From Eledone cirrhosa (lineage: Eukaryota): 64,000 nucleotides of DNA. Made by a program: the position numbers and the translations under genes. Shown piece by piece: positions 56,252-57,095 of the stretch. Below the pieces are notes generated by a model. It did no database searches. It was given only the letters and a program-made list of their open reading frames with translations, and was not told the origin of the DNA. The stretch is from positions 24,490,001 to 24,554,000 of the forward strand of contig OZ024761.1 in the NCBI GenBank assembly GCA_964016885.1. The letters are read 5' to 3'. The number at the start of each line of letters is the position of its first letter. The first letter of the stretch is position 1.

Positions 56252-57095
56252 ATCGGATTCATCTCGAAAGGTCTATTTTCTACTCGCTCATATATTCACC
56301 CAGCTTATACTGATAGGAAGAGACACAAGCTACATAGTTATTCTATCTTCGGTTAGCTTTTCTCTGTGTTGTTTACTTGTCTCACTCGCTTAACGCGTTT
56401 TAATTGTCCTAATAACTTATTTTAGTTATTATTGCGCCAACGTGAGGTATATGATTTTTAATGCAATGAAATACCTATGACCGTTGGTAAATCACTGATG
56501 AGGGACTCATTTTATAACATGTTATCCATGTGCAACCATGCAGTATTCTTCTCCCCATTTTTTCAAATATATTTACCTAAACTGCGATTGTGTTTTTCTC
56601 TCTCTCTCCCTTACTGCTCCCTCGTTCTCTCTGTTTCTCTTACTTTCTTTCGTCCCCTCTGTCATGTCAGTTAACACTTTCTCTCTACTGACCTCTTCCT
56701 CACACTTCCACTCGCTCACTCACTGTTTCTCCCCTTCTCACTTCCCCCCGTTCGAAACGTTAACGATTTTCCTTCTTTCTTACATCGGATTCATCTCGAA
56801 AGGTCTATTTTCTACTCGCTCATATATTCACCCAGCTTATACTGATAGAATAACTATGTAGCTTGTATCTCTTCCATTCTTCGTTTAGCTTTCCTCTGTG
56901 TTGTTTACTTATCTCACTCGCTTTACACGTTTTAATTGTCCTAATAACTTATTTTAGTTATTATTGCGCCAACGTGAGGTATATGATTTTTAATGCAATG
57001 AAATACCTATGACCGTTGGTAAATCACTGATGAGGGACTCATTTTATAACATGTTATCCATGTGCAACCATGCAGTATTCTTCTCCCCATTTTTT

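Follow-up and report, generated by a model that had tools for sequence, protein, structure and literature searches.

What kind of element leaves copies of one short motif in non-coding repeats of an animal chromosome, and what keeps the motif alike where the surrounding repeat has diverged? The question arises from a window of 64,000 nucleotides of Eledone cirrhosa (contig OZ024761.1, positions 24,490,001 to 24,554,000 of the forward strand; positions below count from its first letter), for which a sequence-only reading had proposed that two divergent tandem families conserve a self-cleaving RNA motif through compensatory base-pair changes. The divergent motif family is confirmed, while the supposed second tandem family is, within the window, one 846-bp insertion of 1.59 units. 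The strings said to be conserved, AGGUAUAUG, GAAAU(A/G)CCUAUGA and CUGAUGA, lie at 56445, 56468 and 56495, are repeated 532 bp further on and occur in four more copies between 25162 and 27049 (array 1), whose motifs are spaced 639, 582 and 616 bp apart. The pairwise check that had been suggested was run and gave the expected identity peak at the motif (79 of 101 positions, 78%, versus 272 of 431, 63%, in the rest of the unit and 57±2% in shuffles), and no ATG-started frame in a unit dimer is longer than 107 aa, in agreement with the view that structure rather than protein is conserved. A model built from the motif family matches exactly six motifs in the window, some of which belong to its training set. 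Copy 1 of the repeat differs from copy 2 by a micro-inversion of about 27 nt at approximately 56317-56343.

Both copies of the motif in the insertion have an architecture in common with the four copies at 25.1-27.1 kb (Table 1). From the 5' end, the motif consists of the first strand of helix PA, hairpin H, the first strands of PB and of PI, three bases, a strand of stem III, position H17 and a strand of stem I; a linker then leads to the PB partner, position 11.1, GAAA, the stem III partner, a 3-nt bulge followed by GA, the partners of PI and stem I, CUGAUGA and finally the PA partner. The hammerhead core (CUGANGA, GAAA and UH) stands in register with stems I and III in the parsed copies and in the genome patterns, and the UH triplet reads AUA, AUC or GUC/GUU, with U16.1 in 175 of 177 copies. 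The blocks are thus ordered cleavage site, GAAA, CUGAUGA, which is type SGC, a non-circular permutation of the hammerhead. Structural analogy predicts cleavage after 56451 and 56983, each the putative H17 of an AUA triplet. The UAAUGC linker resembles the cleavage strand of twister, a candidate that we rejected since the remaining parts were absent by eye.

Table 1. Positions, in the window, of the insertion, of the parts of its first motif copy and of the sister array
Feature	Position	Strand	Remarks
Whole insertion	56252..57097	+	846 bp, 1.59 units of a 532-bp non-coding repeat, 5'-truncated, with (TA)n and (CA)n(TA)n on its flanks; from alignment
Permuted hammerhead motif, copy 1	56406..56506	+	
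Permuted hammerhead motif, copy 2	56938..57038	+	Identical to copy 1
Helix PA, 5' strand GUCC	56406..56409	+	Partner GGAC 56503-56506; closes the motif; AUCC/GGAU subfamilies covary; paired in 79/80 subfamily cells
Hairpin H	56410..56431	+	One arm of the four-way junction; from covariation
Helix PB, 5' strand UUGC	56432..56435	+	Partner GCAA 56463-56466; 98% paired
Tertiary helix PI, 5' strand CCAACG	56437..56442	+	Partner 56482-56487; covariation in 5/6 pairs
Predicted k-turn, non-bulged strand	56443..56445	+	3n U, 2n G, 1n A
Block S	56446..56457	+	Stem III 5' strand, H17 = A56451, stem I 5' strand; predicted cut after 56451
Block G	56463..56475	+	PB 3' strand, position 11.1 (U56467), GAAA, stem III 3' strand
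Predicted k-turn, bulged strand	56476..56481	+	3-nt bulge, G1b, A2b, 3b
Block C	56489..56506	+	Stem I 3' strand, CUGAUGA (56495-56501), one extra base, PA 3' strand
Predicted cut-to-cut monomer RNA	56452..56983	+	532 nt, pyrimidine-rich (68% C+U); putative
Array 1, sister subfamily	24652..27352 (ends by eye)	+	Motifs at 25122, 25761, 26343, 26959

We compared the helices between the two window families and across the genome. All of the changes listed in the sequence-only reading occur in the sequence, and five of them are true double changes (C-G to U-A in stem I, CCAACG/CGUUGG in place of CCAACC/GGUUGG, two in the upstream hairpin and one in the pseudoknot), whereas the G.U to A-U replacement is one-sided; a sixth double change, C-G to U-A at the closing pair of the hairpin, had been missed. 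The pseudoknot sequence AUCGC, given as typical of array 1, is found in only one of its four copies, the other three having CUCGC. Two families alone could not exclude chance, and the claim that compensatory change exceeds it is borne out by the genome-wide set. In 30 subfamily representatives, drawn from 48 clusters and the window copies, 23 of 32 pairs changed on both sides (none of 500 shuffles reached as many), and 93.3% of positions were paired, versus 81.0% after shuffling and 27-47% when the strands were slid. On a tree built from the same alignment, with helices PA and H left out, 26 double changes fell on the same branch, at 21 pairs, and 25 of them kept the pair (null 4.9±2.3; 0/5000). 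The counts for PA and H are low in this alignment because PA runs out of register in rows that do not have the extra base, as does H in a few rows. One of the five covariation measures, the number of further pair types, did not rise above shuffles (43 versus 44.8).

The same pattern holds in a larger set, in which 177 copies from fetched loci were parsed in full register, the parse demanding at least nine of the 11 pairs in stems I and III and demanding no PI or H pairing. Among 20 subfamily consensuses, each of at least two copies, 490 of 500 pair cells were kept. The helix swaps that had been proposed as an experiment are already supplied by the natural subfamilies. With strands exchanged between subfamilies, the value for PI drops to 0.72 (from 0.96) and that for stem I to 0.84 (from 0.99), whereas PA, PB and stem III drop no lower than 0.93-0.94. 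Within the young family, the motif was not clearly more conserved than the rest of the unit (rare changes 0.83% versus 1.14%, shared changes 1.6% versus 1.2%). Together, the substitutions support the action of selection on RNA structure, well beyond the two families of the window.

The feature that sets this motif apart is its stem II. The strand after CUGAUGA forms at most 1 bp with the strand before GAAA in 162 of the 177 copies, and none of the 177 fits the stem II clause of the published RNAMotif descriptor, which takes block C as uninterrupted. Instead, an upstream strand (PB) pairs with the bases before GAAA and the strand after CUGAUGA pairs with the 5' end of the motif (PA), giving a four-way junction whose arms are the core, PA, H and PB. 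The covariation of PB, the equivalent of a split stem II, suggests that this helix stands in for distal stem II. The canonical in-chain pair G10.1-C11.1 is absent in the family of the window, and position 11.1 has no possible partner in four of the 20 subfamilies; in one family of this genome, the partner of C11.1 is a G in the upstream strand. An Rfam search gave no match at gathering score and no hammerhead model at E values up to 10, and folding, from single sequences or from the alignment, recovers the nested helices only.

Genome patterns found 13,936, 20,514 and 18,449 matches, compared with 3, 0 and 29 for the reversed patterns that served as controls, and divergent motif groups added 732, 367 and 129 matches. 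The genome therefore holds approximately 20,000 copies of the motif in many subfamilies. They lie in dispersed non-coding tandem units, mostly 500-700 bp long, with one ribozyme motif per unit. In 37 of 38 independent loci of the window family, which as best matches are biased to long copies, the 3' end falls between unit positions 161 and 177, with (CA)n(TA)n following, and the 5' ends are scattered, with several inverted pieces. A second 3' end, lying about 40 nt beyond the first, is seen in most subfamilies and matches the 30-40-bp tail described for Penelope-like elements in PMC8557442; the same source gives a truncated 5' end, partial tandems, inverted pieces, (TA)n and the tail as marks of these elements. 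The insertions share this whole pattern, from the fixed 3' end and the truncated 5' end to partial tandems, inversions, a (TA)n target and the tail. Adjacent copies differ by 2.3%, versus 3.9% between loci, and at subfamily-diagnostic sites they were concordant 603 times and discordant 50 times, approximately 215 discordant cases being expected. Such agreement would follow from repeated copying of a single template, and local tandem duplication could also explain it.

We consider it likely that the insertion is a non-autonomous, Naiad-derived retroelement (a retrozyme), each unit of which has a rearranged hammerhead predicted to cut after A56451 or A56983. Transcripts running across two motifs would be cut to a 532-nt monomer, which would circularize; a Penelope-type reverse transcriptase (RT)/endonuclease would nick (TA)n, priming would take place about 115 nt beyond the cut, at a U-rich-CA site, and the RT would copy round the template more than once.

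The strongest rival, which we regard as unlikely, holds that the motif is a real hammerhead descendant that is slow or dead in the family of the window and is kept for docking either the protein of the retrotransposon or one that binds k-turns. The loss of G10.1-C11.1, together with the unpaired 11.1 of some subfamilies, speaks for it, and so does the poor cleavage in vitro of minimal Penelope hammerheads reported in PMC4209133. It is further favored by the absence of a junction peak at the cut site: 63 matches have their 5' junction there, 80 have it two bases downstream and 21 four bases upstream, counts that are confounded by TA microhomology, and 7/30, 7/30 and 8/21 inspected loci of these respective classes were classed as intact upstream. 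Seven matches that seemed to show arrays ending at the cut site (stopping at query 50-54) were rejected because realignment carried them to the usual 3' end, the stops being alignment breaks. Contigs of run X4, a run of unrecorded kind, have little cover upstream of about 56440, a part that X1 covers; contigs being unable to show ends, this was set aside as evidence. Against a binding role alone stands the occurrence of CUGANGA, GAAA and UH in exact register 18,449 times across subfamilies, which such a role would not need, and an axolotl retrozyme is able to cleave despite a U.U at the base of its helix II (PMC7229834).

As to a possible mobilizing partner, a young intact Penelope-like family with an 808-aa frame is present (L252:2903-5326 and 11 similar loci), the repeats of which are without CUGANGA at the 12 loci; upstream of its frame lies a structured-looking stretch with no Rfam match. 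In the 3' UTR of a second intact family, with an 863-aa frame (L472, L473), lies an ordinary type I hammerhead; the 3' tail of this family before (TA)n is similar. The permuted motif is absent from both of the intact Penelope-like families examined. Elsewhere, pattern searches of metagenomes (four of 64 parts scanned) and viruses yielded 160 candidates; two of these satisfied a loose test for block S, but the upstream architecture was missing from both, and none of 120 prokaryote pattern matches (46 of 64 parts scanned) passed. A repeated metagenome match was rejected as an ordinary Penelope-type motif.

Ordinary hammerheads are also present. Type I cores occur in the window at +4614, -4442, +10406, -10287, +23373, +45301, -54588 and +57263, with one at +55760 recognized by eye; they have a palindromic stem III (dimer type), two lie as inverted pairs, and they likely come from other Penelope-like repeats. 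Adjacent satellites with units of 103 bp and 110 bp occupy 7007-9069. At L299, L301, L312 and related metagenome loci, type I hammerheads have stem II strands GGAC/GUCC, the letters of helix PA, and one may speculate that PA is a relic of an ordinary stem II. An older family (L479:4235-4340; L605-L631) has a Naiad-like stem III and a GGAC strand further from the core, with one tandem spacing of 344 bp.

The origin of the element is suggested by published Naiad sequences. By the account of Craig et al. 2021 (PMC8557442), Naiads are without canonical hammerheads, some being marked 'HHR_half_core', and dominate many invertebrate genomes. Reading by eye, with no program score, we recognized the permuted split-stem fold in published Naiad ends of corals, a cubozoan, an acanthocephalan, a crustacean and octopuses, where its letters are different: it is readable in five of the nine consensus 3' ends available in full (Naiad_Ovul, Naiad_EuTe, Naiad_Plae and the entries before Naiad_Ovul and before Naiad_Plae, which by table order are Obim and 2_Movir) and in the snippets available for three coral entries. 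Naiad_Plae has PA AGAGG/CCUCU, PB GGCCCC/GGGGCC and stem I GAGGAG/UUCCUC, and Naiad_EuTe has PA GGGG/CCCC and PB GACGCC/GGCGUC; in both, the partner of C11.1 is a G in the upstream strand, and the canonical pair is thus completed by a base that does not belong to block C. No such fold was seen by eye in the available Naiad_Omin and Naiad_Ppla sequences or in the incomplete Naiad_Dcar, and the nematode Naiad snippets available show the ordinary block order. In this genome, Naiad RT persists as decayed pieces only: three RT patterns gave 0, 0 and 3 matches, all three of them broken, and none of the 20 best pieces has the motif downstream. Naiad-like cores are also found, old and with no adjacent frame, three of which match model R1 with E values of 1e-6, 0.003 and 0.065. 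From the same fold in the published ends we infer a probable Naiad ancestry, and the present mobilizer is probably another, still intact Penelope-like family acting in trans.

A further rival, less probable again than a slow or dead motif, accepts a working ribozyme and denies both the circle and the descent: the arrays would be template jumps on linear RNA or local duplications, the element would live as a parasite on ordinary Penelope-like families, and its likeness to Naiads would be distant or convergent. Partial tandems are indeed typical of autonomous Penelope-like elements too, and in this genome the 808-aa and 863-aa families are young and intact while the Naiads are decayed. The octopus Naiad form, however, has its hairpin loop letters, k-turn and stem III in common, by eye, with the family of the window, and this, like the intermediate cores in this genome, argues for descent.

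A last element of the architecture joins stem III to PI. Here, G.A and A.G come after a 3-nt bulge, which as far as the letters can tell is the pattern of a standard k-turn. Among 97 copies from loci not chosen on k-turn letters, those that keep the expected letter number 95 for G1b, 97 for A2b, 92 for G2n and 93 for A1n, and L1 is variable. By the definitions in PMC4316175, which distinguishes the standard Kt-7 and the non-standard Kt-23 forms, the order of bulge, G.A and A.G corresponds to a known k-turn, and subfamilies with U or A at 2n correspond to two Kt-23 forms; this predicted k-turn differs from the known ones in being placed inside a natural hammerhead, and one family appears to have the bulge only, Watson-Crick pairs replacing the G.A pairs with bulge and hammerhead core kept. 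The k-turn would bend stem III back toward tertiary helix PI. That the conserved letters are instead box C/D snoRNA-like elements (UGAUGA, CUGA, k-turn) with no ribozyme is highly improbable, for although the predicted k-turn is of the standard form and two C/D snoRNA models match weakly (E 1.9 and 8.3), the scores are 19 bits against cut-offs of 65-85, the family with Watson-Crick pairs in place of G.A keeps the hammerhead core, and stems I and III covary around CUGANGA, GAAA and UH.

The k-turn, the split stem II, the genome-wide retroelement and the link to Naiads are all absent from the sequence-only reading. The architecture, a stem II split over a four-way junction and a predicted k-turn joining stem III to the tertiary helix, appears to be previously undescribed: a full-text literature search, outside which most subscription papers lie, returned no non-circularly permuted hammerhead in an animal genome or a Naiad, none that has a natural k-turn or four-way stem II, and the term 'type-SGC' only in its original paper. 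Somewhat more tentatively than for the retrozyme itself, we incline to a general view in which the non-circular permuted hammerhead is the standard Naiad ribozyme across animal phyla, with a three-stranded stem II formed as a four-way junction and, in cephalopod forms, a k-turn that may place cleavage under the control of a host k-turn-binding protein; here it would drive a retrozyme family of approximately 20,000 copies that has outlived its Naiad parent. If this is true, non-circular RNA permutations exist at high copy number in animal chromosomes, the missing hammerhead of Naiads is a blind spot of the search patterns, and two published statements need revision, that of Eckert et al. that no type SGC occurs in organismal genomes and that of Craig et al. 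that Naiads are without canonical hammerheads.

Among known systems, the closest in fold is type SGC. Eckert et al. 2023 (PMC10085705) demonstrated cleavage in vitro for five type-SGC RNAs, which they found only in metatranscriptomes and in no genome of a known organism; they assumed the block after CUGAUGA to be uninterruptible and noted the geometric puzzle of joining stem III to the interaction helix, to which the predicted k-turn offers an answer. As described there, HRIMA-1 and its variant share with the present motif the S-G-C order, a short linker between stems I and II, the full core and a helix that joins distal stems I and II and lies between the 3' strands of stem III and stem I, which corresponds to PI. 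In contrast, the type SGC described there has a contiguous stem II after CUGAUGA, whereas here stem II is part of a four-way junction, with the strands of distal stem II and of the interaction helix located 5' of block S; relative to HRIMA-1 in particular, the 5' strand of PI lies upstream. Stem III is here connected with the interaction helix through a predicted k-turn or a 3-nt bulge, and the motif resides in an animal chromosome.

As a mobile element, the repeat resembles Naiads (PMC8557442) in its (TA)n targets, 5' truncation, partial tandems, inverted 5' pieces and 30-40-bp tail, and differs from them in encoding no protein. It also resembles the non-LTR retrozymes of animals (Cervera and de la Pena 2020, PMC7229834; Li et al. 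2026, preprint 10.64898/2026.07.22.740005), which are described as tandem arrays of non-coding units, each with a single hammerhead, that are scattered in thousands of copies and linked to Penelope-like elements. The known non-LTR retrozymes have, by the same accounts, type I hammerheads, often dimer-dependent, in units of approximately 150-450 bp, whereas the units of this element are mostly longer and have a permuted motif with a full stem III; because its block order is SGC, it falls outside the type I definition of a non-LTR retrozyme.
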